From: Polyangiales bacterium | Lineage (GTDB): Bacteria > Myxococcota_A > Polyangia > Polyangiales > Houyiibacteriaceae | NCBI GenBank assembly: GCA_035466435.1 | Contig: DATIUW010000166.1 | Coordinates: forward strand, 15,823 to 79,822 | Direction of reading: 5' to 3' | Length of the DNA stretch: 64,000 nt | Part shown: piece after piece, positions 905-26,088 of the stretch | Layout: every line of letters starts with the position of its first letter | Numbering within the stretch: position 1 is the stretch's first letter | Notes under the pieces: model-generated | Told to the model about the DNA's origin: nothing | The model's input: only the letters and a program-made list of their open reading frames with translations | The model's database searches: none | Position numbers and translations under genes: made by a program

Positions 905-1634
905 GAAGCGTACTCACAACGAGGACAGCTTCATGCTGGCCGACGAGGACAACCTCTACGTGGTCGCCGATGGCATGGGCGGACATTCCTCCGGTGAGGT
1001 CGCGAGCCGAATGGCGATCGACACACTTCGGGAGTTCTTTCGGGCGACCGCCGCGGACCCTGAAGCGACCTGGCCGTACAAGATGGACAAAGCGCGCGGC
1101 TATGAGGAGAACCGGCTGATCACGGGCATCAAGCTGGCGAATCTCCGTATCTACGAAGCGGCGCAGAAGAATCCCAACATGCACAGCATGGGTACGACGG
1201 TCGTCGGCATCCTCGTCGTCGAAGACGGTGTGCTGATCGGCCACGTCGGTGACAGCCGTGTCTACCGAATCCGCGATGGAAAAATGGAGCAACTCACGAG
1301 CGATCATTCCCTGCTCAACGACTACATCAAGATGAAGCGCCTCTCGGACGAGGAGATCGAAAACTTCCCGCTCAAGAACGTCATCGTCCGGGCGCTGGGA
1401 ATGAAATCCACCGTGAAGGTCGACACCGTCTTGGACCGACCCGAGATCGGCGACATCTACGTGCTGTGCAGCGACGGGCTTTGCGGGCCGGTTTCAGACG
1501 CGGAGATCCAGCGAATCGTCACCTCCCAGCAAGACATGCAGACCGCTGCCAACAAGCTGATCGACAGCGCCAATGAAGCGGGCGGCCCGGACAACATCAC
1601 CGTGGTTCTCGCGAAGGTCATGGGTCTGAGCTGA
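858..1634 (+). CDS. PP2C-family Ser/Thr protein phosphatase
   Basis: DTHVGMKRTHNEDSF, VADGMGGHSSGEVAS, VGDSRVYR, LCSDGL and GGPDNITVV motifs in the order typical of bacterial PPM/PP2C phosphatases; 258 aa. Confidence 0.9.
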   Translation: MSRARVLAIGDTHVGMKRTHNEDSFMLADEDNLYVVADGMGGHSSGEVASRMAIDTLREFFRATAADPEATWPYKMDKARGYEENRLITGIKLANLRIYEAAQKNPNMHSMGTTVVGILVVEDGVLIGHVGDSRVYRIRDGKMEQLTSDHSLLNDYIKMKRLSDEEIENFPLKNVIVRALGMKSTVKVDTVLDRPEIGDIYVLCSDGLCGPVSDAEIQRIVTSQQDMQTAANKLIDSANEAGGPDNITVVLAKVMGLS

Positions 1635-2574
1635 TCTCGATTCGGTGGAGCGGGGTGAGCACCGCGTTCGAAGCCGACTCTTGCACTCGCGTCCCGTCCC
1701 AGACCACGCAACGGTCGAGCTGCACGCCTTCGTCGAGCCGCACGCCCTCGCCGACGACGCAGTGTTGCAACTGCGCGGAAGGCTCGACGGAGGGAGCCAA
1801 GATGGAGCCCTCTTCGGAAACGATACCCGGCCACGGGAAAGAACCTGAAGCAAGCTCTAGGTTCAGCCGATGATATTCCGAAATTGTCCCTAAATCCGCC
1901 CAAGGCGTGTCATCCACGATGCCGAGCACCGGCGCGCCGCGATCGACCCACTGACGGTAGGCCGTGCGAATGACGCATCCGGATTCGGGCAGCGCCTCGA
2001 AGGCCTCCGGAGCCAAGATGTGTACCCCGGTAAACATGAGCTCCTCGACGACCACGCGATCACGGGGCTCTCCGAGGAGCGTGCGAACCCAGCCGTTTTC
2101 GTCGATGCCGATCGCCCCGAAGCGGGAGGGGTCGGTCGCTCGGCGAAGTATCATGGTTGCCACGGCGCCGCGGCGGAGGTGCTCCCTGCAGGCGGTGCGG
2201 AGATCCGGCGCGAAGAGCGTGTCTCCATTCATGACAATTGTGGAAGCTCGTGGGTCATCGAACAATCCCTGGGCCCTGCGCAAGCCGCCTCCGGTGCCGA
2301 GCAGGATCTCCTCTCTCGAGAAACGCAGCGTCACATCGGGCGGGCATGCTGCTTTTAGGGCGGATTCCACTTCTTCAGCCCGAGGATGCGTGTTGGCCAC
2401 GAGGGTCCGCACCCCTGCGCGCGCCAAGTGCTCCATGGCGAAGCCGCCGAGTGGTCTATTGGCGACGGGCACGATCGGCTTTGGGCGGAGATCGGTGAGC
2501 GGCCGCAGGCGAGATCCGAGCCCGGCTGCTAGGAGCATGGCTTGCACGCCGGCATCGTAGTCGCCTGAATGCAA
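1618..2574 (-). CDS. NDP-sugar pyrophosphorylase (nucleotidyltransferase family) with C-terminal beta-helix-like region
   Basis: N-terminal LLAAGLGSRLRPLTDLRPKPIVPV (GxGxRLxPLTxxxPK) sugar-nucleotidyltransferase signature. Possible starts are TTG 2574, GTG 2547 and ATG 2538. The 3' end overlaps the PP2C 3' end by 17 nt. Confidence 0.8.
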   Translation of the reverse strand: MHSGDYDAGVQAMLLAAGLGSRLRPLTDLRPKPIVPVANRPLGGFAMEHLARAGVRTLVANTHPRAEEVESALKAACPPDVTLRFSREEILLGTGGGLRRAQGLFDDPRASTIVMNGDTLFAPDLRTACREHLRRGAVATMILRRATDPSRFGAIGIDENGWVRTLLGEPRDRVVVEELMFTGVHILAPEAFEALPESGCVIRTAYRQWVDRGAPVLGIVDDTPWADLGTISEYHRLNLELASGSFPWPGIVSEEGSILAPSVEPSAQLQHCVVGEGVRLDEGVQLDRCVVWDGTRVQESASNAVLTPLHRIEISSDP

Positions 2575-2605
2575 ACGAACCAGGGAATCTAGAGCGAATA
2601 GGGCC

Positions 2606-2611
2606 TATAAT
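2606..2611 (+). promoter_or_regulatory. Candidate -10 box (TATAAT) for the nucleotide-sugar operon
   Basis: Perfect TATAAT 21 nt upstream of ATG 2633, followed by the purine-rich AAGGGGGG Shine-Dalgarno (2623-2630). No convincing -35 hexamer at 16-18 nt spacing, so this is weak. Confidence 0.3.
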
Positions 2612-2632
2612 GCCTGGGGCGCAAGGGGGGCC

Positions 2633-3613
2633 ATGAAGAAGATCCTGCTGACCGGGGCCGCTGGATTCATTGGAAGCAATGCTGCCTCCGCGCTGCTACT
2701 GCGCGGGGACGTCGTGGTCGGGGTCGACAATCTCAACGACTACTACGACCCGGCGCGAAAGCTCGCGAACTTGGAGGAAGTTCGGGCTTCCGCTCCCGAC
2801 CCCGCCAAGTTCATCTTCCACAAGATGGATATCCGGGACGAATCAGGCATCGATGCGCTCTGCGCCGAGCACCGCTTCGACGTCATCATCCACTTGGCCG
2901 CGATGGCAGGGGTTCGCGCATCCATCGAGGACCCGAAGCTCTATCTCGACGTCAACCTCGGCGGTACGTTGAATCTGCTCTTGGCTGCGCAACGTCACGG
3001 CCAGCCACTCTTCGTTTTCGCGTCCACTTCCTCGGTCTATGGCGAGACGGAAATCATTCCGTTCATCGAAACCGATCGGGCGGACCGACCGTTGGCTCCG
3101 TATCCGGCAAGCAAGCGCGCCGCCGAGCTTCTCGGCTATTCATACTTCCACTTGTTCGGACAGAACTTCACGGCTCTCCGCTTCTTCACCGTCTACGGAC
3201 CACGGGGACGTCCCGACATGATGGCCTACAAAGTTCTAGACAACATTTTTCGAGATATGGATGTCCCTCTCTACAACGACGGCCGAATGCATCGTGACTG
3301 GACATACGTCGACGACATCGTGCAGGGCATCATCGCCGCTGCCGACGAGCCCCTCGGGTACGAAATCCTGAACCTGGGACGAGGGCAGCCTACGCTCTTG
3401 GCCGATTTCGTCGGTCTCATCGAGGAACAGGCGGGCCGCCGTGCTCATTTGACTAGCAGCCCCATGCCGGCGGCGGACATCGAGTACACCTACGCCAGCA
3501 TCGACCGGGCCCGCGAGCTCCTGGGCTATTCCCCCACGGTGACGGTCGAGCAAGGCGTTGCGAGATTTTGGCAGTGGTACCGCAAAGCAGTGCTAAAGGA
3601 TGGCGCGTCATGA
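2633..3613 (+). CDS. NAD-dependent epimerase/dehydratase (UDP-glucuronate 4-epimerase-like)
   Basis: GAAGFIGSN Rossmann motif and YPASKRAAE (YxxxK) catalytic motif; 326 aa, extended SDR fold. Confidence 0.8.
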   Translation: MKKILLTGAAGFIGSNAASALLLRGDVVVGVDNLNDYYDPARKLANLEEVRASAPDPAKFIFHKMDIRDESGIDALCAEHRFDVIIHLAAMAGVRASIEDPKLYLDVNLGGTLNLLLAAQRHGQPLFVFASTSSVYGETEIIPFIETDRADRPLAPYPASKRAAELLGYSYFHLFGQNFTALRFFTVYGPRGRPDMMAYKVLDNIFRDMDVPLYNDGRMHRDWTYVDDIVQGIIAAADEPLGYEILNLGRGQPTLLADFVGLIEEQAGRRAHLTSSPMPAADIEYTYASIDRARELLGYSPTVTVEQGVARFWQWYRKAVLKDGAS

Positions 3614-5544
3614 GCCGCTTCAAGAACCGCACCACTCAGTTCTTGATCGACATCGGCGTACTGATGATCGCCTTCCTGCTGGCGATGCTGGTGCGATTCG
3701 ATTGGGACGTGCCGAGGCCGATGTTCCGGCAGTTGATGATCGTTCTGCCGTACGTGGTCTTGCTGCAATATGCGTTTCTATCGCTCTTCGGAATCACTCG
3801 GTTCTCGTGGCGATTCATCAGTCTGCGGGATGCGGTTCGAATCTTCGTCGCGGTTGCAAGTGCCACGGCCCTTCTGGTCGGACTCCGATTGGTGAGCCCG
3901 ATGCTGGTCGACCGTGCCCCGCTGGCCCGCTACGCGATCGTGCCCCTCGGCGTGCTCTTGGGCGACTTCGTACTCGCGTTCTTGGGCCTCGCGGGTGTCC
4001 GGGCGATGCGGCGGCTGCTCGGTGAGCAGGTAGCCTGGAGGAGCCACCGCCGAGCAGAGAAGCCGCGCGAGCCGACGCTTTTGGTGGGCGCAGGGCAAGG
4101 AGGCGTCCTGATCGCCCAGGAGATCGCGCGTCGCCCCGACCTCGGCATCGCGCCCGTGGCATTCGTCGATGATGATCCGGTCAAGCAAGGCGCGGTCATT
4201 CACGGGATCAAGGTGCTCGGCACGACCGCGGACTTGGCGCACCTCGCAGCACGCTTTGGCGCCAAGCAGGCGTTGATCACCATCTCGAACGCTCCAGGCA
4301 CGGCGATTCGGCGCATCACCGAGCGCTGCGGCGAGGCGGGGCTCACGGCGAAGATCGTGCCCGGCGCGTACGAGATAGTGCGCGGCCGCGTGAATCTCTC
4401 GCGTATACGCCAGGTCGCCATCGAGGACCTCTTGCGCAGGGAGCCCGTGAAGCTCGATACCGAAGCGGTGTCGGACGTGTTTCGGGGGCAGCCGGTGATG
4501 GTGACGGGCGCAGGAGGGAGCATCGGGTCCGAGCTCTGCCGTCAAGTCGCTGCGTATCGGCCCTCCTCTCTCGTGTTGGTCGAACGCTCCGAGAACAGCC
4601 TCTTCGAGATCCACATGGAGCTGGCCGGCCGTTTTCCGGATCTCGACGTGGTGCCCTGCGTTGCAGACATCACCGACGTCGGGCGAATGACGCAGATCTT
4701 CCGGGATCACCGGCCATTGGTCGTTTTTCACGCCGCGGCCCACAAACACGTTCCCATGATGGAGTGGAACCCAGCCGAAGCGGTGAAGAACAACGTCCTC
4801 GGGACGCAGGTGGTCGCGGATCTCGCCGACAGCTTGGCGGTCGAGCGCTTCGTCATGATATCGACCGACAAAGCCGTAAACCCGACTTCGGTCATGGGTG
4901 CGACCAAGCGTGCGGCCGAGCTCTACGTGCAGGGCCTCGCCGGACAGAGTGCGACGCACTTCGCCACGGTGCGGTTCGGCAACGTGCTCGGCTCTGCAGG
5001 GAGCGTGATTCCGATTTTTCGCAGACAGATAGAAGACGGAGGTCCGATCACGGTCACCCACCCCGAGATGACTCGCTATTTCATGACCATTCCGGAGGCC
5101 GTACAGCTCGTGATGCAAGCGGCCGCGCTCAGCCGGGGCGGCGAGACGTTCATTTTGGACATGGGGCAGCCCGTTCGGATTCTCGACCTCGCGCACGATT
5201 TGATACGGCTGAGTGGGCTCGAACCCGAAAAGGACATCGAAATCCGATTTACCGGGGTTCGGCCCGGCGAGAAGCTCTTCGAGGAGCTTTCGACGCTCAG
5301 CGAAGGAATCGAGCGAACCGCGCATCCAAAGATTTTCAATGGAAGCTATCAGTCGCCGCACCTGCCAACGCTCCGCGCTCAGCTCGATACGCTGGCAGAT
5401 CTTTGCAAGGCCTCGAGCATTCATGCAATCCGCCAATCTCTCGTGCAGATCGTGCCCGAATATGCCGATGGCAAACGTGAAAGCGAGCCACCGACGAACG
5501 TCGACCCCATGATGCGCGAGTCGAAGCCTTTGGAGGTCTTATGA
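3610..5544 (+). CDS. Membrane-anchored polysaccharide biosynthesis protein, CapD/WbpM/PglF family (UDP-HexNAc 4,6-dehydratase-like)
   Basis: Hydrophobic N-terminal helices, then LLVGAGQGG and VTGAGGSIGSEL nucleotide-binding motifs and an MGATKRAAE catalytic region. ATG 3610 overlaps the upstream stop (ATGA 3610-3613). The longest ORF starts at 3568. Confidence 0.85.
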   Translation: MSRFKNRTTQFLIDIGVLMIAFLLAMLVRFDWDVPRPMFRQLMIVLPYVVLLQYAFLSLFGITRFSWRFISLRDAVRIFVAVASATALLVGLRLVSPMLVDRAPLARYAIVPLGVLLGDFVLAFLGLAGVRAMRRLLGEQVAWRSHRRAEKPREPTLLVGAGQGGVLIAQEIARRPDLGIAPVAFVDDDPVKQGAVIHGIKVLGTTADLAHLAARFGAKQALITISNAPGTAIRRITERCGEAGLTAKIVPGAYEIVRGRVNLSRIRQVAIEDLLRREPVKLDTEAVSDVFRGQPVMVTGAGGSIGSELCRQVAAYRPSSLVLVERSENSLFEIHMELAGRFPDLDVVPCVADITDVGRMTQIFRDHRPLVVFHAAAHKHVPMMEWNPAEAVKNNVLGTQVVADLADSLAVERFVMISTDKAVNPTSVMGATKRAAELYVQGLAGQSATHFATVRFGNVLGSAGSVIPIFRRQIEDGGPITVTHPEMTRYFMTIPEAVQLVMQAAALSRGGETFILDMGQPVRILDLAHDLIRLSGLEPEKDIEIRFTGVRPGEKLFEELSTLSEGIERTAHPKIFNGSYQSPHLPTLRAQLDTLADLCKASSIHAIRQSLVQIVPEYADGKRESEPPTNVDPMMRESKPLEVL

Positions 5545-6485
5545 AAGTCCTGATCACGGGAGGAGCCGGCTTCATCGGGAGCCACGTAGCAGAGGCGGCG
5601 ATCGAAGCCGGCCATCGGGTTCTGATAGTCGACGACTTGAGCACGGGACGCACCGAAAACGTTCCCGCGCAGGCGGATTTTCAGCAACTCGACATCCGAG
5701 ACCGCGACTCCCTCAGGGACTTGGTGATCGGGTTCGCGCCCGACGCGATCAGCCATCACGCTGCGCAAGCGAGCGTGTCGGTGAGCGTCCGCAAGCCCGT
5801 CCTCGATGCGGACGTCAACGTCCTCGGCTCGATCAACGTGGCCCAAGCTGCCCTCGAATGTGGCAGTCGGCTGGTATTCGCTAGCACGGGTGGTGCTCTT
5901 TATGGGGAAGTGCCCGAGGGCAAGACTGCAGGCGAAGACTGGCCTGCCTACCCTCTCAGTCCGTACGCGTGCAGTAAGGCGAGCTTCGAGCTCTATCTGC
6001 GCGCCTATGGCTCGACCGCTGGTCTGCGATACACGATCCTCCGTTACGGCAACGTGTACGGCCCGCGTCAGGATCCTCACGGAGAAGCGGGAGTGGTAGC
6101 GATCTTTCTTCAGCGGCTCCTTCGCGGTGAGCCAATTCAGGTCAACGCGCGACGGCAACCCGGTGATGACGGTTGCGTTCGTGACTACGTCTACGTACGC
6201 GACTCGGTACGGGCGAACCTCGCAGCGTTCGATGGGGCACTCGACGGCCGAACCATCAACATCGCCACGGGTATCGGCATGGCGACCAGAACGCTCGCAG
6301 AGCGCCTGGTTGCGCTGGTCGACAGGCCCGCGATCGTCCGCGATGGCGACCACCGACCGGGCGACCTCGAACGTTCGGTGCTCGATCCGTCGATCATGGT
6401 GTCCATCCTCGGGGAGCCGACCCCGATGGACACGGGCTTGGCCGCCACCACCGAGTGGTTTCGGCAACAGGCAGCGCGATCATGA
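5541..6485 (+). CDS. NAD-dependent sugar 4-epimerase (GalE/WbpP-like)
   Basis: ITGGAGFIGSH Rossmann motif and YACSKASFE (YxxxK). ATGA overlap with the upstream gene at 5541-5544. Confidence 0.8.
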   Translation: MKVLITGGAGFIGSHVAEAAIEAGHRVLIVDDLSTGRTENVPAQADFQQLDIRDRDSLRDLVIGFAPDAISHHAAQASVSVSVRKPVLDADVNVLGSINVAQAALECGSRLVFASTGGALYGEVPEGKTAGEDWPAYPLSPYACSKASFELYLRAYGSTAGLRYTILRYGNVYGPRQDPHGEAGVVAIFLQRLLRGEPIQVNARRQPGDDGCVRDYVYVRDSVRANLAAFDGALDGRTINIATGIGMATRTLAERLVALVDRPAIVRDGDHRPGDLERSVLDPSIMVSILGEPTPMDTGLAATTEWFRQQAARS

Positions 6486-7759
6486 CTGAGCGAGTCGGCG
6501 TCGTGGGCCTGGGTTACGTGGGTCTGCCCGTTGCACTGTCTTTCGCGAAGAAATTTGAGGGCACGGTTGGTTTCGACGTGTCGCAAGCGCGCATCGATGC
6601 GCTCCGGGCCCACTCCGATTGGACCGGAGAGGTTTCCGAAAGAGAGCTCGCTCAGAGCAGTCTGCTGCTCACCAGCGATCCCTCGGATCTACGAGGGTGC
6701 ACTTTCTTCATCGTCGCCGTGCCAACGCCGATCGATACGGACCGCCGACCTGATCTCGGCCCGCTTCTGTCTGCAACTCGAACCGTCGGGAACGCGCTCG
6801 CTCCAGGGGCGGTCGTGGTGTACGAGTCCACGGTATATCCAGGCGTGACGGAAGAACGCTGCGGTCCGCTTCTCGCCGAAACGTCGGGCTTGGTCCAGTC
6901 GCGTGATTTCAAGCTGGGATACTCGCCCGAACGCATCAATCCGGGAGACAAGCAGCACTCCTTCGAAAAGATCATCAAAGTCGTGTCCGGACAGGACGCC
7001 GAAACACTCGAGCGGGTAGCCCGGGTCTACGAAACCGTCGTCGATGCAGGCGTCCACCGAGCTGCTTCGATCAAGGTCGCCGAAGCGGCGAAGGTCATCG
7101 AGAACACGCAGCGGGACGTGAACATCGCGCTGATGAACGAGCTCGCCCTGATCTTCGATCGGATGGGGATTCGAACCCGAGACGTCCTCGAAGCGGCGGG
7201 CACCAAGTGGAACTTCCTTCGCTTCACTCCGGGCCTGGTTGGAGGTCATTGCATCGGCGTGGACCCGTACTACCTGACCGCGAAAGCCGAAGCGCTCGGA
7301 TATCATCCCGAGGTCATCCTCGCCGGGCGGCGCATCAACGACAACATGGGCCGCTACGTGGCCGAAAAGACCGTCAAGCTCCTCCGCAAGCAAGATCACC
7401 CAGTCAAGGGCGCACGCCTCGGTGTCCTCGGTCTGACCTTCAAAGAGAACGTGCCCGACTTGAGAAACAGCCGCGTGCCGGACATCGTCATGGAGCTTCG
7501 CGAATACGGCATTGAGCCGATCGTTCATGATCCGCTGGCGGCGCACGAAGAAGCCTTGGGCGAATACGGTATCGACCTTCGTCCTTTCGACGCATTGACC
7601 GACCTCGATGGCGTCATCTTGGCGGTGGCTCATCAACAATATCTCGATCAGCTCGAGCGCGTCGTCTCGAGCGTACGGTCGGGCGGGCTGCTGATCGACG
7701 TGAAGTCCGTATTGCGCCCCGCCGAGATGCGCGCGGACTTGTGCTACTGGAGTCTCTGA
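6482..7759 (+). CDS. Nucleotide-sugar 6-dehydrogenase (UDP-glucose/GDP-mannose dehydrogenase family; TviB/WbpO-like)
   Basis: VGLGYVGLPVALSFA NAD-binding N-terminus and GGHCIGVDPYYL catalytic-Cys motif. ATG 6482 overlaps the upstream stop (ATGA 6482-6485). Confidence 0.85.
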   Translation: MTERVGVVGLGYVGLPVALSFAKKFEGTVGFDVSQARIDALRAHSDWTGEVSERELAQSSLLLTSDPSDLRGCTFFIVAVPTPIDTDRRPDLGPLLSATRTVGNALAPGAVVVYESTVYPGVTEERCGPLLAETSGLVQSRDFKLGYSPERINPGDKQHSFEKIIKVVSGQDAETLERVARVYETVVDAGVHRAASIKVAEAAKVIENTQRDVNIALMNELALIFDRMGIRTRDVLEAAGTKWNFLRFTPGLVGGHCIGVDPYYLTAKAEALGYHPEVILAGRRINDNMGRYVAEKTVKLLRKQDHPVKGARLGVLGLTFKENVPDLRNSRVPDIVMELREYGIEPIVHDPLAAHEEALGEYGIDLRPFDALTDLDGVILAVAHQQYLDQLERVVSSVRSGGLLIDVKSVLRPAEMRADLCYWSL

Positions 7760-7772
7760 GCCGATTGGTGGG

Positions 7773-8381
7773 CTAGAAGAGGCGCTCGGGAACGTAGATG
7801 ATGTCCCCAGCGGCGACCTCGATGTCTTGGGCCTGCCCTTTGGTCACGCGGGCGACTGGTACTCGGTAGCGCACGGTTTCGTTACCGACTCTACGCGTCA
7901 CGACCGTGCCGTCACGATCCGCGAGAGCCGAGAAGCCGCCTGCCCGGGTGATCGCCTCGACGACGGTCATCCCCGGCTCGAGGGCAAAGGTGCCGGGATT
8001 GGCTACGGCGCCCATCACGCTGACGCGTTTGGACGCGTATTGTTCGACGTAGACGGAGACGTGCGGATTGCGCAGCAAGTTCCTCTCTTTGAGAAGCGTC
8101 TGGATCCGGTCTGCCACTTGGGGAGGCTCCAGGCCTTCGACCTGAACGGCGCCCAACAAGGGGAAGTTGATCGTACCGTCCGGCGCCACTTGGTGGCTCC
8201 CACTCATCGGTTCCTCGCCGTAGACGCGGACTGCAAACACGTCTCCCGGTCCGAGGGTCGTATCGTCGGTGGCCGGAGGCGGCACCTCGGTGGTCTTCAC
8301 GCCGCGGTTGCTACAACCTGCGGCGCCAAATCCAACGGCCGAGGCGATCAGAATCAATAAAAGACGCGAAGACCGAGCCAT
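7773..8381 (-). CDS. Short outer-membrane polysaccharide export (OPX/Wza-like) lipoprotein
   Basis: Lipoprotein signal MARSSRLLLILIASAVGFGAAGC. Poly_export-type N-domain (LGPGDVFAVRVYGEE...DGTINFPLLGAVQVEGL...IQTLL) plus a single SLBB-like domain ending DIIYVPERLF. Only about 202 aa, so there is no C-terminal amphipathic helix region. Start ATG 8381 chosen for the signal peptide; the longest ORF starts at 8492. Confidence 0.8.
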   Translation of the reverse strand: MARSSRLLLILIASAVGFGAAGCSNRGVKTTEVPPPATDDTTLGPGDVFAVRVYGEEPMSGSHQVAPDGTINFPLLGAVQVEGLEPPQVADRIQTLLKERNLLRNPHVSVYVEQYASKRVSVMGAVANPGTFALEPGMTVVEAITRAGGFSALADRDGTVVTRRVGNETVRYRVPVARVTKGQAQDIEVAAGDIIYVPERLF

Positions 8382-9682
8382 GCTTGAAATTTCTGGTAAC
8401 TCGCCGCCGGCTCGACGAGAGGCTGGACTCCCAGATACTCGAAGTCCGTGAAGTCCGCCAAGTATCCCAGCTCGCCGAACAGCGCGAGCCATGCCTTGAA
8501 CCGGTATTCTGCGAAAAACGCCGTGAACAAGCGGATGTCCTCGCGATATGGCTGGTTGCCGAGGAGGACACCGTCAGGCGTGACCGCTAGGCCTGACTTG
8601 TCGAAGGATACCCAGCCTTTGACTCCGAGCTCGAGCGCGCCGGATACGATGAAGCTGGTCTCGAGGTATAGCCGGTTCATCGCGGTGAAGTTGCCGATGA
8701 AGGACGGGACGAAGTCGCGATTGAAGCCCCCGGTCACCGTCACGGTCGGTCGCGGACGCCATCGCGCCTCCACGAGGGCAGTGACGCCATCGAAATCGTC
8801 GCCTATGTCGTAGAAGCCCACCGCGTATCCGACGAACACCGACAACGAAAACCGTTCGGTGAGAGCGCCGTTGTAGCCGATGGCGCTCGCGGCTCGATTG
8901 TTGTCGGAAAGCAACGTGGGCGATTGGGCGACACGCTCCGCATCGAAGCGTTGGCCCGAGTAGCGGAAGTCCCAAACCAACGCGGAAGCCGGAAAGAAAG
9001 ACCAGCTCAAAGAGGCCGGAACCTGATGGGTCATGGAGTTTCCGTACTGGTAGATGTCGGCATCGAAGAACGCGAACTGATTGGTGTAGCCGACGCGTCC
9101 CTCGAGCACCTGGCTCTTGCTTCGGCCCACCAAGTCGAGTGTTGCCGCGTTGTTGTTGGCACCATATCCAATCGTCTGGCCCTCGACGGTGTTCGGATCA
9201 GCGAACGGGCGCACGGTGCGTCGGAACACGTTCCGCAACTGCAACGAGAACACCTGGGATGGGTTGTACGAGAAGTCGACGTGGGCGTCGGCCGCGGCGT
9301 TGTCGCCGATCCGATCGGTGGAGAAGTGATAGTAGGCGAAGCCCAGGCCCCCGCGGAACTCGATCTTCTGGGGCGCGGCCTGTTGGGTGTCGCCTTCCGC
9401 CTGGCGGATGGAGCCCTCGGTCGCCACGTCGAGATAACCAGTCAGGCGGAGGAGGAAGGAGTCCTCTTCGTTCCCGTCCTGAAGGAAGACGTTCGAATCG
9501 TAGCCGCCCTCGAGCGACAGGCCGGGATGCAGCACGAGACGTCCGGTCTTGAAACCGGGGCCCTCGGTTCCGGCACGATCCTCTCGGTAGCCCTGCGCGC
9601 GCGCGGGCTCCGGCGACGAGAGCTGCGCGCTCAAGCTGGCCACCAAAGCCAGAGCGAGCTCTAGCTTCCGGCAGTCGCGCAT
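8354..9682 (-). CDS. Outer-membrane beta-barrel protein (GltH/NfsH-like or Wzp-type polysaccharide porin)
   Basis: Signal peptide MRDCRKLELALALVASLSAQLSSPEPARAQG. Alternating amphipathic beta-strand pattern rich in G/Y/F/N/D, and a C-terminal OMP signature (...AWLGLRVFY). The 3' end overlaps the OPX start by 28 nt. Confidence 0.7.
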   Translation of the reverse strand: MRDCRKLELALALVASLSAQLSSPEPARAQGYREDRAGTEGPGFKTGRLVLHPGLSLEGGYDSNVFLQDGNEEDSFLLRLTGYLDVATEGSIRQAEGDTQQAAPQKIEFRGGLGFAYYHFSTDRIGDNAAADAHVDFSYNPSQVFSLQLRNVFRRTVRPFADPNTVEGQTIGYGANNNAATLDLVGRSKSQVLEGRVGYTNQFAFFDADIYQYGNSMTHQVPASLSWSFFPASALVWDFRYSGQRFDAERVAQSPTLLSDNNRAASAIGYNGALTERFSLSVFVGYAVGFYDIGDDFDGVTALVEARWRPRPTVTVTGGFNRDFVPSFIGNFTAMNRLYLETSFIVSGALELGVKGWVSFDKSGLAVTPDGVLLGNQPYREDIRLFTAFFAEYRFKAWLALFGELGYLADFTDFEYLGVQPLVEPAASYQKFQAWLGLRVFY

Positions 9683-9720: not shown

Positions 9721-10320
9721 TCAGTTCACTCCACTGACCGGGGGAGGAATATACGGGATCGGCCAATCCGAGATGGTCGTGACCACGGCCGGATTTTCAT
9801 CCGGTGCGAAGAGGTCGACGTCTTCCCGCACCTGCGTCTCGCCGGTGTCGAATAGATCCTGACCCACGCATTGGTTGGCCGCCTGGGCCAATGCATTGAA
9901 CTTCTGCGAAAGCACTCCGATGACCGTGAACTCGTGATTGCGACGCCCCGCATCGCCTTCGGAGATCGCCTCGTTCAGCGCGGTCTGCCGACGCTTGATG
10001 TTCTGCAGATTCGCTTCGCACTGTGCGAGCTTGTCTTCCAAGCAGGTTGCGCGGATGATGTCGGTTTCGCGCTTGGCGCTCCGAAGCGCCTGCGATTGGG
10101 CGGTGCAGCTAGCCGCAGCCTTCTCGACGGCTGCCTCTGCTGCCTTGGACTGCGCGGCAGGCGACGATGGCTGCGCCGCGGACGGTGCGCCCATCGGCTC
10201 GACCTGAATGACGTCGACGGTGGTCTCCGAAGCCTCTTGCGCCACCGCATACGTCAGGCCTCCCGCGGCTATCAAGGCCGCCAGCAGCGCCTGCCCCACG
10301 GTCCCCATCGGTTTAAACAT
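9721..10320 (-). CDS. Secreted coiled-coil protein with four cysteines, unknown function
   Basis: ATG 10320 preceded by GAAGGGA (6-nt spacing). Signal peptide MFKPMGTVGQALLAALIAAGGLTYAVAQ, an Ala/Gln-rich helical core with Cys in SCTAQ, TCLED, QCEAN and QCVGQ, and a Pro-rich tail. No family recognised. Confidence 0.6.
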   Translation of the reverse strand: MFKPMGTVGQALLAALIAAGGLTYAVAQEASETTVDVIQVEPMGAPSAAQPSSPAAQSKAAEAAVEKAAASCTAQSQALRSAKRETDIIRATCLEDKLAQCEANLQNIKRRQTALNEAISEGDAGRRNHEFTVIGVLSQKFNALAQAANQCVGQDLFDTGETQVREDVDLFAPDENPAVVTTISDWPIPYIPPPVSGVN

Positions 10321-10344: not shown

Positions 10345-10372
10345 ATTATACGCCGCAGGATTCTCGTGTCAA
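10345..10372 (-). promoter_or_regulatory. Near-consensus sigma70-type promoter TTGACA-N16-TATAAT
   Basis: Minus strand reads CCATTGACACGAGAATCCTGCGGCGTATAATCGCCGCAAGTAGAAGGGATCGTTGATG. The -35 is at 10367-10372 and the -10 at 10345-10350. An AT-rich tract lies upstream (10373-10418), with the SD and ATG downstream. Confidence 0.55.
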
Positions 10373-10418: not shown

Positions 10419-11876
10419 CTAGTTTTGAGGCTGAAAAACAAAGGGATATCGGAAGGTCACGCTTCCCCCTTCCGGACCCGGGTTGAAACGAAACCGGCTG
10501 ATGGTGCGGGTCACGCAATCTGCGACCGCGGGACTGCCTGTCGTATTCTCCGTGGCCTTCGCGTCGGTGACGTTGCCACGTTGTTGGATGGTGAACATCA
10601 CCGTCACCTTGCCCGACAAGCTCGGATTCTTCCGGAGCTCCGACTCGTAGCACCGCGTGATCGACTTGAGCCGCAGCTTGATCTGCTGCTGTACGAGGGC
10701 GGCGTCGAACGCTCCGCTCCCGCCGATGTCGCCGCCTCCGCGGAGCCCCACGTCCCCGCGTACGGCCCGCTCTTCGACCGCTTTCCCTTCGCCGGCTGCC
10801 TTTCCGGCACGCTCGCTCTTCTTGAGCGCGCCGAGCCCTTCTTTTTGTCCGCTGCCGCCTCCGCCGCTGCGCGTTCGAAGCGCTCCTGCTTCACTCTTTT
10901 CCGCCACGCCGACGCCCGTGGCCTGGGCGAGCACGTCGGCTGCGTTCCCGGTGACGGCGCCGCCTGCCAAGACATCGCCCAACGCGCCATCTTCGCCTCC
11001 GAAGGCTCCGAGGAGCATCGCCTCCGCTTGCGCTGCAGCTTCCTGTGCGAGCCTGGCACGGCCCTCTGCGGTCGCCCCGCCTGCTTCTCCGGCCGCGGGC
11101 TCCCTGCCCTCGGCCTTCGCCGGCTTCTTTTCGGGGGCTTTGCCTTCGGCCTCTTCCTCCGCTTCGCCCTCTCCTTCTTCGATCTCCTCCTCCACGGTCG
11201 GCGGCTCGATCGGAGTCTCGAAAATCAACCGAGCAAGGCTCTCGGGAACTTCCTGCGTCCCTTTTTCGATCTCCCAGTCGGCGTTCTCCATGTAGATGAT
11301 GAAACCGAAGAACAACATGTAGGAGAAGATCACCCAGGTGGTGAAGGTCCAGTCGATGTTCTTGACGAACCCTCGTTGAACCGCCGCTGGAAGCTGGGGT
11401 TTGGGCGTGATCGGCGGCGCGGAGACGAATTCGAAGAAGACGGTGAAGTCGCCCATCCGAATGTTGCCACGGGACGTGTCGGCGAGCTTGATCTGATAGT
11501 GCGTGCCGGCGTTTCTGGCGGCCCCCGTCTCCCGAAGGTGCTCGAGCTTCTGGACCCCTCCTGGCAGCGCGACCTTGCCGGTCATGTCCTCGGTGAAATT
11601 CAAGATGTAGTCGTCACCGACGAGCTGAAAGAGCTCGAAACGCGATTCGAGCTTGGGAGGAAGCGTTCCCGATTTGATGATCAGGTGGTTCTTGGCGGCC
11701 GTGCCCACGGACACGGTCTCCCGACGCCGCACGATTCGCTCCTCCACGATCTTCTTGTCGCGGAACAGGCCGACTCGCAGAACCTTGGGTCCCGTATACT
11801 TGCTCGGCACCGCCTGCATGGCGACCGTCATGGCCCCAGGTCGCGCTCGGTCGCTCGGTGTCTGCGGCTCGGCCAT
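10419..11876 (-). CDS. GltG/NfsG (AgmX)-like bitopic protein with TonB-C-like C-terminal domain
   Basis: 485 aa. Cytoplasmic N-domain (KVLRVGLFRDKKIVEERIV...), one TM helix (WTFTTWVIFSYMLFFGFIIYM), a long Glu/Ala/Gly-rich linker, and a C-terminal domain (CYESELRKNPSLSGKVTVMFTIQQRGNV...SVTFRYPFVF) resembling TonB-C / AgmX-PglI tails. ATG 11876 overlaps the upstream stop (TAATG). Confidence 0.7.
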   Translation of the reverse strand: MAEPQTPSDRARPGAMTVAMQAVPSKYTGPKVLRVGLFRDKKIVEERIVRRRETVSVGTAAKNHLIIKSGTLPPKLESRFELFQLVGDDYILNFTEDMTGKVALPGGVQKLEHLRETGAARNAGTHYQIKLADTSRGNIRMGDFTVFFEFVSAPPITPKPQLPAAVQRGFVKNIDWTFTTWVIFSYMLFFGFIIYMENADWEIEKGTQEVPESLARLIFETPIEPPTVEEEIEEGEGEAEEEAEGKAPEKKPAKAEGREPAAGEAGGATAEGRARLAQEAAAQAEAMLLGAFGGEDGALGDVLAGGAVTGNAADVLAQATGVGVAEKSEAGALRTRSGGGGSGQKEGLGALKKSERAGKAAGEGKAVEERAVRGDVGLRGGGDIGGSGAFDAALVQQQIKLRLKSITRCYESELRKNPSLSGKVTVMFTIQQRGNVTDAKATENTTGSPAVADCVTRTISRFRFNPGPEGGSVTFRYPFVFQPQN

Positions 11877-12133
11877 TAGAAAGGTTCCTTTTGCACGCTG
11901 CGGACGACATCCCGCAAGAAGCTGGTGCGGAGCTCGAGCACCTCGTAGCCGAGGTTGGACCGGTTCAGAATGTAGAACGCATTCGGTTTCTGGACGCGTC
12001 CCTCGATCACGATCTCTTCGAGCTGGATGACTCGTGGTTGTCGCTTCTTCGGCCCGCCTTGGGCATCTGCCGTCGCCATGGGCAACGCGACCAAGAGCGA
12101 GCCGAGCAACAGAGCGCAAGCACTTCGTTTCAT
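11876..12133 (-). CDS. Small secreted protein (GltF/NfsF-position)
   Basis: 85 aa with signal peptide MKRSACALLLGSLLVALPMATADAQ. Coupled at both ends by 1-nt stop/start overlaps. Assignment rests on position and size only. Confidence 0.55.
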   Translation of the reverse strand: MKRSACALLLGSLLVALPMATADAQGGPKKRQPRVIQLEEIVIEGRVQKPNAFYILNRSNLGYEVLELRTSFLRDVVRSVQKEPF

Positions 12134-13410
12134 CAGGTCCCCCCTTCGCGGTCGAGACGTCGCCGGGCGCGGTCGATCAGGCGCTCGAGATCACGCAAGT
12201 ACTCCGCGGACTGGTCGTCCCTCGAGAGCCGAGGGCCCATCTGCGCACGATACGTCCTCAGCTCGTCGACTGCCTTTTCGTACGCGCTGAGCTCGTCGAG
12301 CCCGGGGAAGTCCCCGGCGGCGGTCAAAAAGAGAAGGCCGAGCCCGTAGTGGGCTTCGGGCAGCTCGGACCGCAACTCGAGGGCTCTCCGATACGCGCTC
12401 TGCGCTTCAGTCCATTGCTGCGTTGCGCGGTAGGCATCGCCGAGGTTCACGTGGACCTCGGGAAGAGTCGGCACGAGTCGTTCGGCGGCCTGAAAGTGCG
12501 ACAGCGCGCCGGGGTAATTGCCGCCCGCGAGAAGCTGAATTCCAAGCGCCATCCGAGCTTCCGCATAGTCCGGACGGAGTTGCACGGCGCGTTGGTATGC
12601 CCCGAGCGCCTCACGCAGCCGCCCGGGCTCCGCTTTTCGCCTTTCGCCTTCGAGGTAATGGAGCTCGGCCACTTCGGAGTCGATTTGCATGGCCTGCTCC
12701 AGAATCGAATCGGCCAGCTCGTCGCGCCCCTGGGCCCTGCTGGCCTTGACCAGCGCGATCAGGGCCGGCACGAAGCGCTCGTCGCATTTGAGAGCCCGCC
12801 GGGCTGCAAGCCAGGCTTCTTCGAGACGATTTGCTTCGACCAAGAGCTCTGCATAGAGCGCCTGCAACTCGAGATTCGACCTGCTGGCGTTGGCCAGCGG
12901 CTCGACGAGGGCGACGGCCTCCTGCGCCTGACCGCGGCGCAACAGGATGGTCGAGATGCCACGAGCAGCGAGCTCGTAGTCGGGCAAGATGGCGAGCGCC
13001 CGGCGGTAGTAGTCCATCGCGACCTTCTCGTTACCTTGCCGATCGGCCAACACGCCCAGATTGTAGAGCGCCTGATAGGCCTCGGGGTCCTTCCTCACGG
13101 CCTGCTGAAAGCTCGCTTCCGCCGAGGCCATCTCACCCTGGGCGGCGGCGCGAGCGCCATCCTCGAGGGGCTTTTGTGCCTTTGCCGAGATTGTGGGCCT
13201 CTGCGGGCGACGGCATTGTTCGGCGCGCGTCGCCCCCCATGGGCTCGACGCATCACCGGAAGCGACGCCTTCGCCGTACTCTCCCGGTCGTCCCGGCGCT
13301 TCGCCGCCGGCGGTCGACTCCTGCTCGGCGCCCGATTCGGGAGTGCCCTTGCAGCCGTAGCTCATGAAGAGCACGGCTCCCATCCACATCGTCGCCGTCC
13401 GCCAACGCAT
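12133..13410 (-). CDS. TPR-repeat lipoprotein (GltE/NfsE-like)
   Basis: 425 aa. Lipobox MWMGAVLFMSYGC followed by about 8 TPR-like repeats (recurring A..Y..AL...P....A...LG pattern). TGATG overlaps at both ends. Confidence 0.65.
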   Translation of the reverse strand: MRWRTATMWMGAVLFMSYGCKGTPESGAEQESTAGGEAPGRPGEYGEGVASGDASSPWGATRAEQCRRPQRPTISAKAQKPLEDGARAAAQGEMASAEASFQQAVRKDPEAYQALYNLGVLADRQGNEKVAMDYYRRALAILPDYELAARGISTILLRRGQAQEAVALVEPLANASRSNLELQALYAELLVEANRLEEAWLAARRALKCDERFVPALIALVKASRAQGRDELADSILEQAMQIDSEVAELHYLEGERRKAEPGRLREALGAYQRAVQLRPDYAEARMALGIQLLAGGNYPGALSHFQAAERLVPTLPEVHVNLGDAYRATQQWTEAQSAYRRALELRSELPEAHYGLGLLFLTAAGDFPGLDELSAYEKAVDELRTYRAQMGPRLSRDDQSAEYLRDLERLIDRARRRLDREGGT

Positions 13411-16400
13411 CACTCGACCCCCTTGGTGATAGCAGGCGGTGCGACGCCGGGTCGAATCTCGAGCGGCTTGCCCCTCGGCGAGCGGGAAAATTCACCCGGT
13501 ACGTAGCCTTCGAACGTGGTGTCTCGTTCCTGCGCCTCGGCGATGCACTCGGCAATGCGCTCATCGCCGTATGCCTGGAGCCGGTCGATCGCGAGGCGCG
13601 TGTACTGATCGTCGAAGCTGCCAGCCCTTCCGGCTCGCGCGGCGAGCGCGTACCGTGCGACCGCAAAGCACTCTATCGGGCGGACCTGCGAATCGAGCAC
13701 CTGGCGGATCTTGTCTTCGAAGTCGAGTCGGTATTCTTCGCGCTCGTATTCATCGGCCTGCCGGAGCGCCCGTTGGAGCTCGGTGGGCAACACGAACGGC
13801 GTATTCAAAATGGCGCGCGCCAGAATCTCGTAGGCCCGTCCCTGTCGGACGTAGGCCGCGATCGTCCAGCGAGGCCGACGATATGGGAACACCTGCTCGT
13901 AGCCGTCGGCAACGGACTGGGCCTGCTTCGAGCCTTCTGTGATCTGTCTGGTGATCGTATTGACGTAGGCCTCGACGGTGTTGGGTCGGCCGGGCCTGAT
14001 TTGGAACTTCTCGAAGCTTTCGAGCCGGTCGTCGACGAGTGTGAATCGCGCCTCCGCCGCATAGCCCGCTGCGAGCGATCCCGGTGGCTGGCCCGAGCGC
14101 TCGTACGCGTCGAGCACGTCTCGAAGCGCCGCGCGATAATCTTGGGTTCGCCCGCGAGCTTTCCAGGATTGCGCGATACGCCAATGTGCCTGTACGACGA
14201 GCTCGCCAGCCGCTCCGTCGTTTCCGTACCGGGCGATGAACTCGCGCATTCCGCTGATGGCTTGTGGGTAGCGCTGCTGCTTGTAGGCCATCTCGGCGAT
14301 GCGGTAGAGGGCGTTCCGCTTCGTGGCGGGGTCCTCGACGCTTTCGTAGACCCGCCGGTAGTATCGTGTCGCCTCCGGGTAGCGCTGAAGCTGCTCGAGC
14401 AGAACCGCGGTGTTCACCAAGCCATCGGCTACCTTGGCCTGCACCTCTGGGTCTGCTGACTTCGCGAAACGCGGGGAGTCGGCCAGAACTCGATAGTTTT
14501 CGACGGCGCGATCGAAATCGAAGTTACGGCTCGCCGTATACGCCAGCTTGAAATGCGCGTTCGCCAGGATCGCGTCGAGGCTCTTCTGCTCCTCCGCGTC
14601 TTCAGCCTCTCGAGGCCCCACGTCGTCGATGATGCGCTGATATAGCTGGCCTGCCGAGTCGAAGCGGTTGGTCGCCTCCAGTGCCAACGCCGCATACTCG
14701 AGGGCGAGCGGCGCCTGTCTGTCGTCGGGATTGCTGTTGACGGCGGACAGCAGCATGCTCGCCGATTGCTCGTAGAGCGCGGTCTGCTCCGCGCCGGATG
14801 CCTGTCCTGCTCGTCTGTAGACCTCGAGCGCATCTTGGTAGACGAGCGCGTTGAGATCAGCTCCTGCACGGCAAATGGGTTGGTCACGGTTGGCGGGCTT
14901 GCTGCAGTCGATCTGCTCCGCGCGTGCCGAGAAAGTGCAACCGCGGTCGCGGACGTCCGTGGCGAGCCGGCGAATCTCGTCGGTGTCCTCGCGCGCCATG
15001 GCCATTGCGCGCAGATTCTCCCAGGCTACCTGGCCGGTCGCGTCGGCATCGGCGCCCGAGCAGCGCTCCTCGTAGATTCGCGTGAAGCGTGCTTCGGCCT
15101 GCGGCCAGTAGCCGTACCAATAGAGCAGAAGCGCGTTGTTGTAATCATAGGCGGCGCGAACGCCCTCGGTATCGCGCTGGGGGCTGACGCGAGATAGATA
15201 GATCTCCCTCGCGCGAGCGAGACGTTGCACGGTCTCTGGCATCGCGACGGGTTGTACGGTCGGCGGCTCGCCGCTCGGCTGCGGGGCCGTGTTGCGGATG
15301 ACGAGCCGGCCTTCTTCCACGTCGCGGTCGGCGATCCGCTTCAAGGACTCGACGACCCGTCTCGCGGACTCGGCCAAATAGCTGTCGTCGACGTTCGAGT
15401 CTCGAACCTCGGCGTACTCGGTTGCCGCTTGCTCGTAGCTCTTCGACCAATACAGGGCATCGGCGAGATTGTAGTGAAGCTCGTAACCCTGAGGATTGTT
15501 CGGATATCGCTCGAGGTAGCTGCGGTACGCGGTCGCTGCGAGCTCGTATTCGCCTTGCGCATCGCGGCAAAGCCGCACGTTGCGCTCCTCGACGCATCGT
15601 TGGCGAAGGCCTTGGGCGCGCTGGTGATGATGAATCGCAGTGATGATGAGCGCGTTTTCGGCCAGTTGCTCGGCCTCGCGTTGCTCGGCCGGCCGGTCCA
15701 TGTTGGCGTTCCACCACGCGCTCCCCTGTACGTACTGCGTGAGCTCGGAACGCGCAGCAATGGCCTGCTCGAACTCGTTGTGCATCTGGTGGGCGACTGC
15801 GATGTCGTTGAGTATCTCGGGTGTGCGATGGTGATTGGGCCACTTGTCGATGGCGAGTCGCCAAGCCGCGATGGCCTGCGGGTATTTCGCCTCGTCGAAG
15901 TAGACTTGACCCAACTGGAAGTAGACCTCCGGTGTCCACGCCCTTCCTTGAGGAAGCAATGCGGGATCTTGGATGCGGGCAATGCCCGTAGGCCGCCCTT
16001 CGGTGGGATCGGGAATTTGATTCTCGTTCCAGTCGTCATAAGCGAAGGCTATGCCGAGGTACTCGATCGCTTCGGGTCGTAGCTCCGATCCGGCCCTCCC
16101 CGTCTCGCGCTGGGTGTCGTCGGACCACTGAACCAGCTCGCCGAAATGCCGAATCGCCTCTGGGTACCGGCTCGCCCTGTAATACGCCCAGGCGACTTTG
16201 TAGAGCGCTAGATTGTAGTTTCGGTCGTTCGGGTCATCTAGAATGCGACGGTATGCAGCGATGGAAAGGTCGAGCGCGTTCTCGCCGCCGAAATCATCGA
16301 AGTGATACTCGCCGATGCGAAACCAGGTCTCGCTGACGAACCGCGCTTGCGGCGAGACCGGTCGGCACTGTGCGTAGGGGTCGACGAACGTGCCTCTGAC

Positions 16401-17252
16401 CGAGGCGCCGAGCGGCCGTCCGTCCAAGGTCAGTGCCGGATATCTTGCCTGTGCGCTGAGCGACGCATCGGGCGGCGGTCTCCAGTTGGGGTCGTATTCG
16501 TATTTGTTCGCGCAAACCAAAGCGAGCCAGGCAGCCAAGGCCTCCTCGGGTCGCCCCATTTCGTTGAGCGTGTAGCCGACCAAGTAGTAGACGCCGTCCA
16601 AGCGCTCGTAGTTGGGAAATCGTTGCGCGAGAGATCGGTAGAGGGTGATCGTCGGCGTGAAGTCCGGAGACGTCGGCAAGCCATCTTCGGCAGCCGGATC
16701 GCCTCGGTCACGAGCGGCCTGCGCCTCGTCGTAGAGCTTCTGGAACGCGATCGAGCTTCGCTCGAAATAGAGCTCGCCCAGACGGAACATCGCGTCGGGC
16801 GTGTATGTGGGGTGGTCTGGGTATCGCTCGACGAACTCTTCGAAGGCTCGGATCGAGGTTTCCCGCGCTTCATCGAGCGCCCGCTCCTCGGCTTCGATGC
16901 GGGTCCCGTAGTAGCGGTCCCGTTCACGCCGTCGCTGCAGGTACTGGCGCCGCACCAGCGAGCTCACCGTGGATTCGAAGGTCTCTCCACTTTGCAGGTA
17001 TCGCTCGACCTCCCGCTCGAGCTCTCGGAGCGCGTCGATCTGCCGTTTGGTGGGCGGCGGCCGTTCTTCGACGACCCGTTTGCCGGTGTCTTGCAGGAAC
17101 GGCGGCAAGGTGACGTCGCTCGCGCCTTGCCAGGGAACGGACTCGGGCTCCGATTCGGTTTCCGCCTCTTCGGCTCGCTGCGCGAACACTGGGGCCGGCA
17201 ACAGTGCTGCAAGCCACGAGAGCGCCAAGATCGTCGATGGGGACCATCTCAT
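13410..17252 (-). CDS. Large periplasmic TPR-repeat protein (GltD/NfsD, AgmU-like)
   Basis: About 1280 aa from ATG 17252, with signal peptide MRWSPSTILALSWLAALLPAPVFAQ. TPR-like repeats run throughout. ATGA overlap with the upstream gene at 17249-17252. The longest ORF (17381) would lie inside the upstream gene. Confidence 0.7.
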   Translation of the reverse strand: MRWSPSTILALSWLAALLPAPVFAQRAEEAETESEPESVPWQGASDVTLPPFLQDTGKRVVEERPPPTKRQIDALRELEREVERYLQSGETFESTVSSLVRRQYLQRRRERDRYYGTRIEAEERALDEARETSIRAFEEFVERYPDHPTYTPDAMFRLGELYFERSSIAFQKLYDEAQAARDRGDPAAEDGLPTSPDFTPTITLYRSLAQRFPNYERLDGVYYLVGYTLNEMGRPEEALAAWLALVCANKYEYDPNWRPPPDASLSAQARYPALTLDGRPLGASVRGTFVDPYAQCRPVSPQARFVSETWFRIGEYHFDDFGGENALDLSIAAYRRILDDPNDRNYNLALYKVAWAYYRASRYPEAIRHFGELVQWSDDTQRETGRAGSELRPEAIEYLGIAFAYDDWNENQIPDPTEGRPTGIARIQDPALLPQGRAWTPEVYFQLGQVYFDEAKYPQAIAAWRLAIDKWPNHHRTPEILNDIAVAHQMHNEFEQAIAARSELTQYVQGSAWWNANMDRPAEQREAEQLAENALIITAIHHHQRAQGLRQRCVEERNVRLCRDAQGEYELAATAYRSYLERYPNNPQGYELHYNLADALYWSKSYEQAATEYAEVRDSNVDDSYLAESARRVVESLKRIADRDVEEGRLVIRNTAPQPSGEPPTVQPVAMPETVQRLARAREIYLSRVSPQRDTEGVRAAYDYNNALLLYWYGYWPQAEARFTRIYEERCSGADADATGQVAWENLRAMAMAREDTDEIRRLATDVRDRGCTFSARAEQIDCSKPANRDQPICRAGADLNALVYQDALEVYRRAGQASGAEQTALYEQSASMLLSAVNSNPDDRQAPLALEYAALALEATNRFDSAGQLYQRIIDDVGPREAEDAEEQKSLDAILANAHFKLAYTASRNFDFDRAVENYRVLADSPRFAKSADPEVQAKVADGLVNTAVLLEQLQRYPEATRYYRRVYESVEDPATKRNALYRIAEMAYKQQRYPQAISGMREFIARYGNDGAAGELVVQAHWRIAQSWKARGRTQDYRAALRDVLDAYERSGQPPGSLAAGYAAEARFTLVDDRLESFEKFQIRPGRPNTVEAYVNTITRQITEGSKQAQSVADGYEQVFPYRRPRWTIAAYVRQGRAYEILARAILNTPFVLPTELQRALRQADEYEREEYRLDFEDKIRQVLDSQVRPIECFAVARYALAARAGRAGSFDDQYTRLAIDRLQAYGDERIAECIAEAQERDTTFEGYVPGEFSRSPRGKPLEIRPGVAPPAITKGVE

Positions 17253-24673: not shown

Positions 24674-24678
24674 GCCCG

Positions 24679-26025: not shown

Positions 26026-26088
26026 CCCCCAAACGGCTCCGTCAGACGAAGACCTTACCGCAATTCCGCCCGCGGCGCTCACCCCGGC

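Follow-up and report, generated by a model that had tools for sequence, protein, structure and literature searches.

Two overlapping genes in a 64,000-nucleotide stretch of DNA from an uncultured myxobacterium (Polyangiales bacterium, contig DATIUW010000166.1; the whole 64-kb stretch is referred to as the window) very probably encode a composite translocon of the WzaB/WzpB type, i.e., the outer-membrane exit of a Wzx/Wzy-type secreted-polysaccharide pathway. One gene codes for a short lipoprotein of the outer-membrane polysaccharide export (OPX) family, the other for an integral outer-membrane β-barrel. As the counterpart of WzaB/WzpB from Myxococcus xanthus, the pair belongs to a known type of translocon. 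An earlier note on this DNA had described a helix-less mini-OPX paired with a dedicated integral β-barrel, as in the Wzx/Wzy pathways of M. xanthus, and this pairing is supported by the domain content, the match to WzaB and the structure model of the barrel. Both genes lie in the following module.

7773-8381, minus strand: Class 3 (D1D2) OPX lipoprotein, 202 aa, synteny-based ortholog of M. xanthus WzaB (MXAN_1915)
8354-9682, minus strand: 18-stranded outer-membrane β-barrel as modeled, 442 aa, Wzp-type porin and counterpart of WzpB (MXAN_1916)
9721-10320, minus strand: secreted protein, 199 aa, counterpart of MXAN_1917 and third member of the module
10345-10372, minus strand: promoter-like site with the σ70 consensus (TTGACA, 16 nt, TATAAT), in the 95-nt AT-rich gap before the three-gene unit

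The OPX reading frame starts with the ATG at 8381 and closes with the stop codon at 7773-7775. Its N-terminus, MARSSRLLLILIASAVGFGAAGC, is a signal peptide of the lipoprotein type that includes the Cys of a lipobox (ending ...ASAVGFGAAGC). Residues 36-112 form a Poly_export domain (PF02563, E 3.6e-21, 75.5 bits at a cutoff of 28) and residues 118-197 a single SLBB domain (SLBB_2, E 1.9e-14); the protein stops five residues later, and Pfam revealed no Wza_C, D4 helix, GfcC or any further domain. The top match in the PDB was WzaB (9N9A, E 2.7e-35), aligned end to end including the final residue. The two proteins share 42% identity (BLASTP, E 2e-42) and have a near-identical pattern of NCBIfam bit scores, i.e., 111.8 versus 114.3, 96.8 versus 107.2 and 92.7 versus 88 for the window protein and WzaB, respectively. 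Escherichia coli Wza, a Class 1 OPX protein (PDB 2J58), aligned in its D1-D2 part only (query residues 63-199 with chain residues 98-231, E 1e-15). In contrast to Wza, the window protein is without D3 and without the amphipathic D4 helix, and hence cannot span the outer membrane alone. We also considered a form of 239 aa starting from the ATG at 8492 and rejected it, as the 202-aa form has the proper lipoprotein signal peptide and fits the gene calls of two long metagenome contigs (L001 and L002).

The C-terminus of the OPX protein reads VPERLF, and VPERxF with an immediate stop recurs in 67 orthologous loci. The stop is hence not an artefact, and a mis-called gene with a longer form carrying a C-terminal helix, which the earlier note had named as the finding that would speak against it, is excluded. 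Phe terminates 65 of these 67 orthologs and follows an aliphatic residue rather than a second Phe. In WzaB, the C-terminal Phe-Phe (Phe203-Phe204) is needed for binding of WzpB (PMC12819527). Taken by its sequence, the protein is supported as a helix-less mini-OPX of the Class 3 or D1D2 type, and Pfam, the PDB alignment and the conserved stop agree with the earlier description of about 202 aa with Poly_export, one SLBB domain and no region for a membrane-spanning helix.

The barrel gene extends from the ATG at 9682 to the stop codon at 8354-8356. It encodes 442 aa with the C-terminus ...WLGLRVFY, and its end overlaps the OPX start by 28 nt (8354-8381); coordinates and lengths are as the earlier note had given them for an outer-membrane protein ending in RVFY. 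Independent gene calls of L001 and L002 contain identical gene lengths and the same 28-nt overlap, and both window genes have a coding-like GC content at third codon positions. Relatives of the barrel are numerous (256 in the database; 974 cluster representatives at E ≤ 1e-3). An AlphaFold2 model for which 32 relatives were used (pLDDT 75.9, pTM 0.69) provided the strand count that the earlier note had proposed to predict: it has 18 strands, all of which alternate between hydrophobic lipid-facing and polar lumen-facing residues, and residues 2-22 form an N-terminal signal helix. When compared with the PDB using Foldseek, AlgE, the 18-stranded alginate exporter, led the TM-scores with 0.50-0.54; many unrelated barrels had similar E-values, and the result is hence informative through its TM-scores only. 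AlgE has also been reported as the nearest structural homologue of EpsX (PMC9601211).

Homology of the barrel to WzpB was found in both search directions. With BLASTP, the two proteins were colinear over about 390 aa (23% identity, E 3e-7 to 3e-6). A profile made from close relatives of the barrel gave 36.7 bits for WzpB and no score for the other eight proteins of the M. xanthus locus, and WzpB as query matched representatives of the barrel family down to 3.5e-23. The Pfam family BBP2_2 (PF10082) was matched by 31 of 71 members of the barrel family at E ≤ 1e-3, the best at 2.1e-12. We therefore regard the window protein, which has no Pfam or NCBIfam match at normal thresholds, as a divergent BBP2_2 branch that is not recognized on its own. 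The barrel is Wzp-like and not GltH-like, because it has 18 strands, is homologous to WzpB and occupies the MXAN_1916 position in a colinear locus, and because M. xanthus GltH, compared here by its published description, has merely 209 aa, with a weak likeness to an autotransporter β-domain (PMC3169522, Table 1). The ambiguity between a GltH-like and a Wzp-like porin that had been noted earlier was thus not borne out.

Upstream of the module, on the same strand, lies a cluster of genes that resemble components of the Glt gliding and Nfs sporulation machineries, mostly with overlaps of 1 or 4 nt.

10419-11879, minus strand: GltG-like TonB-type inner-membrane protein, 486 aa, counterpart of MXAN_1919
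11876-12133, minus strand: GltF-sized protein, 85 aa, counterpart of MXAN_1920 (46% identity, E 5e-20)
12133-13413, minus strand: GltE-like TPR lipoprotein, 426 aa, counterpart of MXAN_1921 (29% identity, E 2e-38)
13410-17252, minus strand: GltD-like large TPR protein, 1280 aa, counterpart of MXAN_1922 (29% identity over 1189 aa, E 3e-107)
17249-19642, minus strand: GltC-like TPR protein, 797 aa, counterpart of MXAN_1923 (C-terminal part, 37% identity over 82 aa, E 1e-13)
19642-20352, minus strand: secreted protein, 236 aa, first gene of the operon, no Pfam or NCBIfam match

The M. xanthus wzaB locus has the order MXAN_1923, 1922, 1921, 1920, 1919, (1918), 1917, 1916 (wzpB) and 1915 (wzaB). 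Eight consecutive window genes correspond one to one to MXAN_1923 to 1915 with the order kept (BLASTP), including the GltG-like protein, which shares 32% identity with MXAN_1919 (E 2.5e-55). MXAN_1919 to 1923 are known as G4, a cluster of Glt/Nfs paralogs in which MXAN_1922 is the gltD homologue (Luciano et al. 2011, PMC3169522). The earlier assignment of the neighboring cluster as Glt/Nfs-like was therefore correct, both by its NCBIfam matches and by its colinearity with G4. All Glt-like window proteins score far under the NCBIfam equivalog cutoffs for true gliding proteins, i.e., 169.6 bits for gliding_GltG (cutoff 650), 97.2 bits for GltE (cutoff 225) and 71.2 bits for GltC (cutoff 450). 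The GltG-like protein exceeds the cutoff of the AgmX/PglI C-terminal domain (NF033768, 92.7 bits, cutoff 40). The G4 proteins of M. xanthus have almost equal scores, likewise under the cutoffs, with MXAN_1920 as a weak match to the gliding_CglF model. Accordingly, the five window genes at 10419-19642 resemble G4 in order and in scores; they differ from it by an identity of only about 30% and by the additional first gene for the 236-aa protein. This protein has a signal peptide, a coiled-coil segment and a β-rich C-terminal half, and L001 and L002 likewise have a gene of this size ahead of the GltC-like gene. In M. xanthus, a gene with a cyclic-nucleotide-binding domain (MXAN_1918; L006, 7503-7949) lies between the gltG-like gene and MXAN_1917; a gene of this type is absent from the window, L001 and L002. 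By locus-tag numbering, mglA (MXAN_1925; PMC3169522, Table S1), which encodes the polarity GTPase, is two genes away from G4. The window has in its place, upstream of the cluster, a divergent pair resembling an extracytoplasmic function sigma factor and its anti-sigma factor (20573-22035, plus strand).

Contrary to the earlier description, the barrel gene does not directly follow the GltG-like gene. Downstream of the latter come the 95-nt gap with the promoter-like site, the gene for the 199-aa protein and, after another 38 nt, the barrel gene; to place the barrel in a gltH/nfsH slot was hence loose. The promoter-like site matches the consensus in 12 of 12 positions and is the sole match of at least 11/12 in the window. 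Of 68 related loci, 67 have a match of at least 10/12 in this position, nearly all with a spacer of 16 nt and including loci without Glt genes; among random windows, the figure was 22 of 1600. M. xanthus has TTGACA-17 nt-TACGCT before MXAN_1917. From these sequence features, the 199-aa gene, the barrel gene and the OPX gene would form a three-gene unit with its own predicted strong σ70 promoter.

The 199-aa protein shares 30% identity with MXAN_1917 (BLASTP, E 1e-12) and has no Pfam or NCBIfam family. Its AlphaFold2 model is a three-helix bundle (residues 54-152, pLDDT about 90), for which Foldseek gave no match below E 0.2 and returned only generic helical bundles. Four Cys residues are invariant and the C-terminal tail is Pro-rich. 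Taken as periplasmic, it is a candidate for a third, so far undescribed component of the translocon.

We analyzed the distribution of the module in a scan with one genome per species, in which an alignment of 23 barrel sequences detected 80 loci with barrels 30-88% identical to that of the window. The scan thus reached barrels of at least 30% identity, and M. xanthus is not among the 80 loci, nearly all of which stem from metagenome-assembled genomes (MAGs) of Myxococcota (Polyangiales, Sandaracinaceae and others). The 199-aa protein of the window is 100% identical to one from a MAG named 'Polyangiales bacterium', and at the protein level the locus shares 87-96% identity with 'Myxococcales bacterium SG8_38'; the window hence stems from an uncultured myxobacterium of sediment type. 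Neighbors were counted by tblastn of the window proteins against the flanks of each locus. The 199-aa gene was found upstream of the barrel gene in 67 of 71 loci and the OPX gene downstream in 67 of 74. Where the flank measured at least 9 kb, a GltG-like gene lay upstream in 48 of 54 loci and a GltD-like gene in 46. The nucleotide-sugar genes beside the OPX gene were kept in closer relatives only.

Six loci are without the GltG-like gene. Three of them (L050, L063 and L067) retain the three-gene unit. In L050 (1-6700), the unit and its promoter are preceded by polysaccharide-synthesis genes, i.e., for a glycosyltransferase, a methyltransferase and nucleotide-sugar enzymes, and in L063 by unrelated genes of fatty-acid and urocanate metabolism. 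The other three, L085 to L087, contain the most distant barrels that were retained (30-31% identical); they have the 199-aa gene, the barrel gene and the promoter-like site, and no OPX or Glt-like gene was found within 10 kb at E ≤ 1e-5.

We propose the following mechanism by analogy with WzaB. The lipid-anchored OPX protein, consisting of D1 and D2, would form a periplasmic ring, octameric in the WzaB type, that is attached to the outer membrane on its inner leaflet. The conserved OPX tail of a hydrophobic residue and Phe may dock onto the 18-stranded porin at its periplasmic rim, and the porin would supply the membrane-spanning channel that the OPX protein is without. The polysaccharide co-polymerase (PCP/Wzc), Wzx, Wzy and the initiating transferase would be encoded elsewhere and feed the translocon, as for WzaB/WzpB in M. 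xanthus. Both the oligomeric state of the OPX protein and the docking of its tail we infer from the characterized M. xanthus pair, where wzpB is needed for intact export of the biosurfactant polysaccharide (BPS) (PMC12819527).

This BPS translocon is the closest known system. It has the same order of porin and OPX genes, the same domains and similar sizes (442 and 202 aa, compared with 421 and 204 aa for WzpB and WzaB), the same upstream neighbors (an MXAN_1917-like gene, then GltG-, F-, E-, D- and C-like genes), and it is likewise encoded apart from Wzx, Wzy and PCP genes. Differences are the OPX tail, which is Leu-Phe here and Phe-Phe in WzaB, the junction of both genes, which overlap by 28 nt here and are reported to be 23 bp apart in M. 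xanthus (PMC9603273), the additional cyclic-nucleotide-binding gene MXAN_1918 of the M. xanthus cluster, and the nucleotide-sugar genes convergent to the OPX gene of the window. By their architecture of a D1D2-OPX protein combined with an 18-stranded barrel, EpsY/EpsX and ExoA/ExoB (WzaX/WzpX and WzaS/WzpS; PMC9601211, PMC9603273) are similar as well, and the same mechanism has been proposed for them. Among solved structures, the synthase-pathway porins AlgE and PgaA come closest in fold to porins of the EpsX/ExoB type. In contrast to the pair in the window, these systems are encoded in or near their biosynthesis clusters in M. xanthus and, as far as described, no Glt-like cluster adjoins them (PMC9601211, PMC9603273).

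Several observations weigh against the assignment as a WzaB/WzpB-type translocon. The pairwise identity of the barrel with WzpB is just 23%, and the barrel alone scored 13.6 bits for BBP2_2, below the gathering threshold of 23.7. Confidence in the barrel model is moderate, with TM-scores to AlgE of only about 0.5. The lumen, with its charge estimated from strand parity (22 Lys/Arg versus 19 Asp/Glu), is only weakly basic, by a margin too small for a call. Moreover, the search for nearby pathway genes that the earlier note had suggested found no Wzx, Wzy, PCP or initiating (phosphoglycosyl) transferase among the open reading frames scanned across the 64 kb, and the assignment to a Wzx/Wzy pathway hence rests on analogy.

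How the G4-type cluster relates to the translocon is a separate question. The linkage is physically real and conserved in the 48 of 54 loci; that both share a mechanism is another claim. Quite possibly, if at somewhat less than even odds, the adjacency reflects inherited gene order only, and the module serves a distant Wzx/Wzy/PCP cluster to which G4 is unrelated. The promoter-like site of the module and its location elsewhere in some genomes are consistent with this, as is the literature, in which MXAN_1915 figures as an orphan OPX belonging to the BPS pathway (PMC7310880, PMC7484181) and no phenotype is reported for an MXAN_1922 insertion (PMC3169522). However, the order is kept although barrels have diverged to about 30% identity, and it is kept between Polyangia-type MAGs and Myxococcus while the downstream neighbors change, which is more than usual for neighbors that are unrelated.

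Alternatively, the GltC/D/E/F/G-like proteins and the unit of 199-aa protein, porin and OPX could form one trans-envelope apparatus, in which the TonB-like GltG homologue and the periplasmic TPR proteins would work on the polymer or its exit site, powered by a Tol/Exb-like motor with genes elsewhere. We consider this rather unlikely. It would agree with the GltG-like gene upstream of the barrel gene, also in 20 of the 26 loci whose barrel is less than 40% identical, and with the same adjacency in M. xanthus, a member of another class of Myxococcota. The Glt-like proteins also have no other outer-membrane barrel in the operon. A precedent exists in M. xanthus, where Nfs acts together with the Exo exporter (PMC3858216) and Agl-Nfs handles the Exo/MASC spore-coat polymer. 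The identities of the barrel and the GltD-like protein co-vary (r = 0.96, n = 46), yet this is expected of any vertically inherited gene pair and carries no weight for function. Against a coupled apparatus stand the conserved promoter-like site of the three-gene unit itself and the 6 of 54 loci where the unit, complete or in part, is without Glt genes. Reportedly, a polar MXAN_1922 insertion did not appreciably affect motility (PMC3169522), whereas swarm spreading is severely impaired in wzaB and wzpB mutants (PMC12819527). In Sandaracinus amylolyticus, the wzaB ortholog is instead reported to adjoin wzc, wzy and wzx (PMC7310880). Among the scanned open reading frames of the window, no MotA/TolQ/ExbB or ExbD/TolR family, i.e., no Tol/Exb-type (AglRQS-type) motor, was found; in M. 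xanthus, too, the motor is encoded away from the G4 cluster. Any cooperation of the translocon with the Glt-like proteins is conjectural, and that one barrel serves both the Wzp and the Glt role is put forward as a hypothesis.

It is highly improbable, and largely refuted, that the barrel is the GltH/NfsH-type outer-membrane part of a Glt-like complex with the OPX gene as an incidental neighbor: its position downstream of the GltG-like gene, where no other barrel is encoded, is a likeness to GltH/NfsH, but those are small barrels of about 200 aa encoded directly after gltG/nfsG, whereas a gene and a promoter intervene here, the barrel is of WzpB homology with more than twice the length of GltH, it overlaps the OPX gene and shares a promoter with it, it remains with the OPX gene where Glt genes are absent, and MXAN_1916 is not in the exhaustive list of Glt homologues (PMC3169522, Table S3).

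For the translocon itself, the pair brings little that is new: descriptions of composite OPX/porin translocons date back to 2022, and both the structure of WzaB and the docking of its tail to the porin were published in 2026. What it adds concerns the neighborhood. WzaB, an orphan OPX in the M. xanthus papers, and G4, with a function unassigned since 2011, belong to one neighborhood that is conserved across distant Myxococcota and also holds a nearly always present small gene and a conserved promoter-like site. In the literature searched, the review by Agrebi et al. 2015 excepted, we found no description of this neighborhood of G4, MXAN_1917, Wzp and OPX with its promoter, and MXAN_1917 to 1921 were not mentioned in the literature searched. 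The conserved link to G4 is an interesting and apparently so far unexploited lead. It gives a genetically testable idea on the roles of G4 and MXAN_1917 in M. xanthus and is relevant to the proposal that a polysaccharide export system was the ancestor of the gliding and sporulation machines.

A more speculative proposal, in our view doubtful, is that the G4-type cluster is a third Glt-family envelope machine with the MXAN_1917/WzpB/WzaB module as its outer-membrane end. If so, each Glt paralog (Glt, Nfs and G4) would work with its own secreted polysaccharide, and the ancient, conserved G4-Wzp-OPX order would preserve the ancestral link that has been proposed between capsule-type export and the machines for gliding and sporulation. 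The 199-aa three-helix protein would then add a third, so far undescribed subunit to translocons of this class.

On the other side of the module, genes for nucleotide-sugar enzymes are convergent with the OPX gene.

1618-7759, convergent with the OPX gene: nucleotide-sugar genes (Pfam and NCBIfam), i.e., a TviB-like UDP-GlcNAc 6-dehydrogenase, two epimerase/dehydratases, a PglF/WbpM-like membrane 4,6-dehydratase and a nucleotidyltransferase

Judged from these TviB-like neighbor genes, the substrate of the translocon is probably an acidic polymer that contains N-acetyl-hexosamine. BPS of M. xanthus is rich in N-acetylmannosaminuronic acid (PMC7310880).

Farther away, the minus strand of the window at 51672-57136 holds a gene for sucrose synthase and then one for a 1023-aa fusion of a PfkB kinase, a glycosyltransferase resembling sucrose-phosphate synthase and a sucrose-phosphate phosphatase, with a gene for a GH31 glycosidase upstream. 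These sucrose genes probably function in compatible-solute metabolism and are unrelated to the translocon. Near the Glt-like cluster, at 22932-26082, two σ54-dependent response regulators are encoded on opposite strands.

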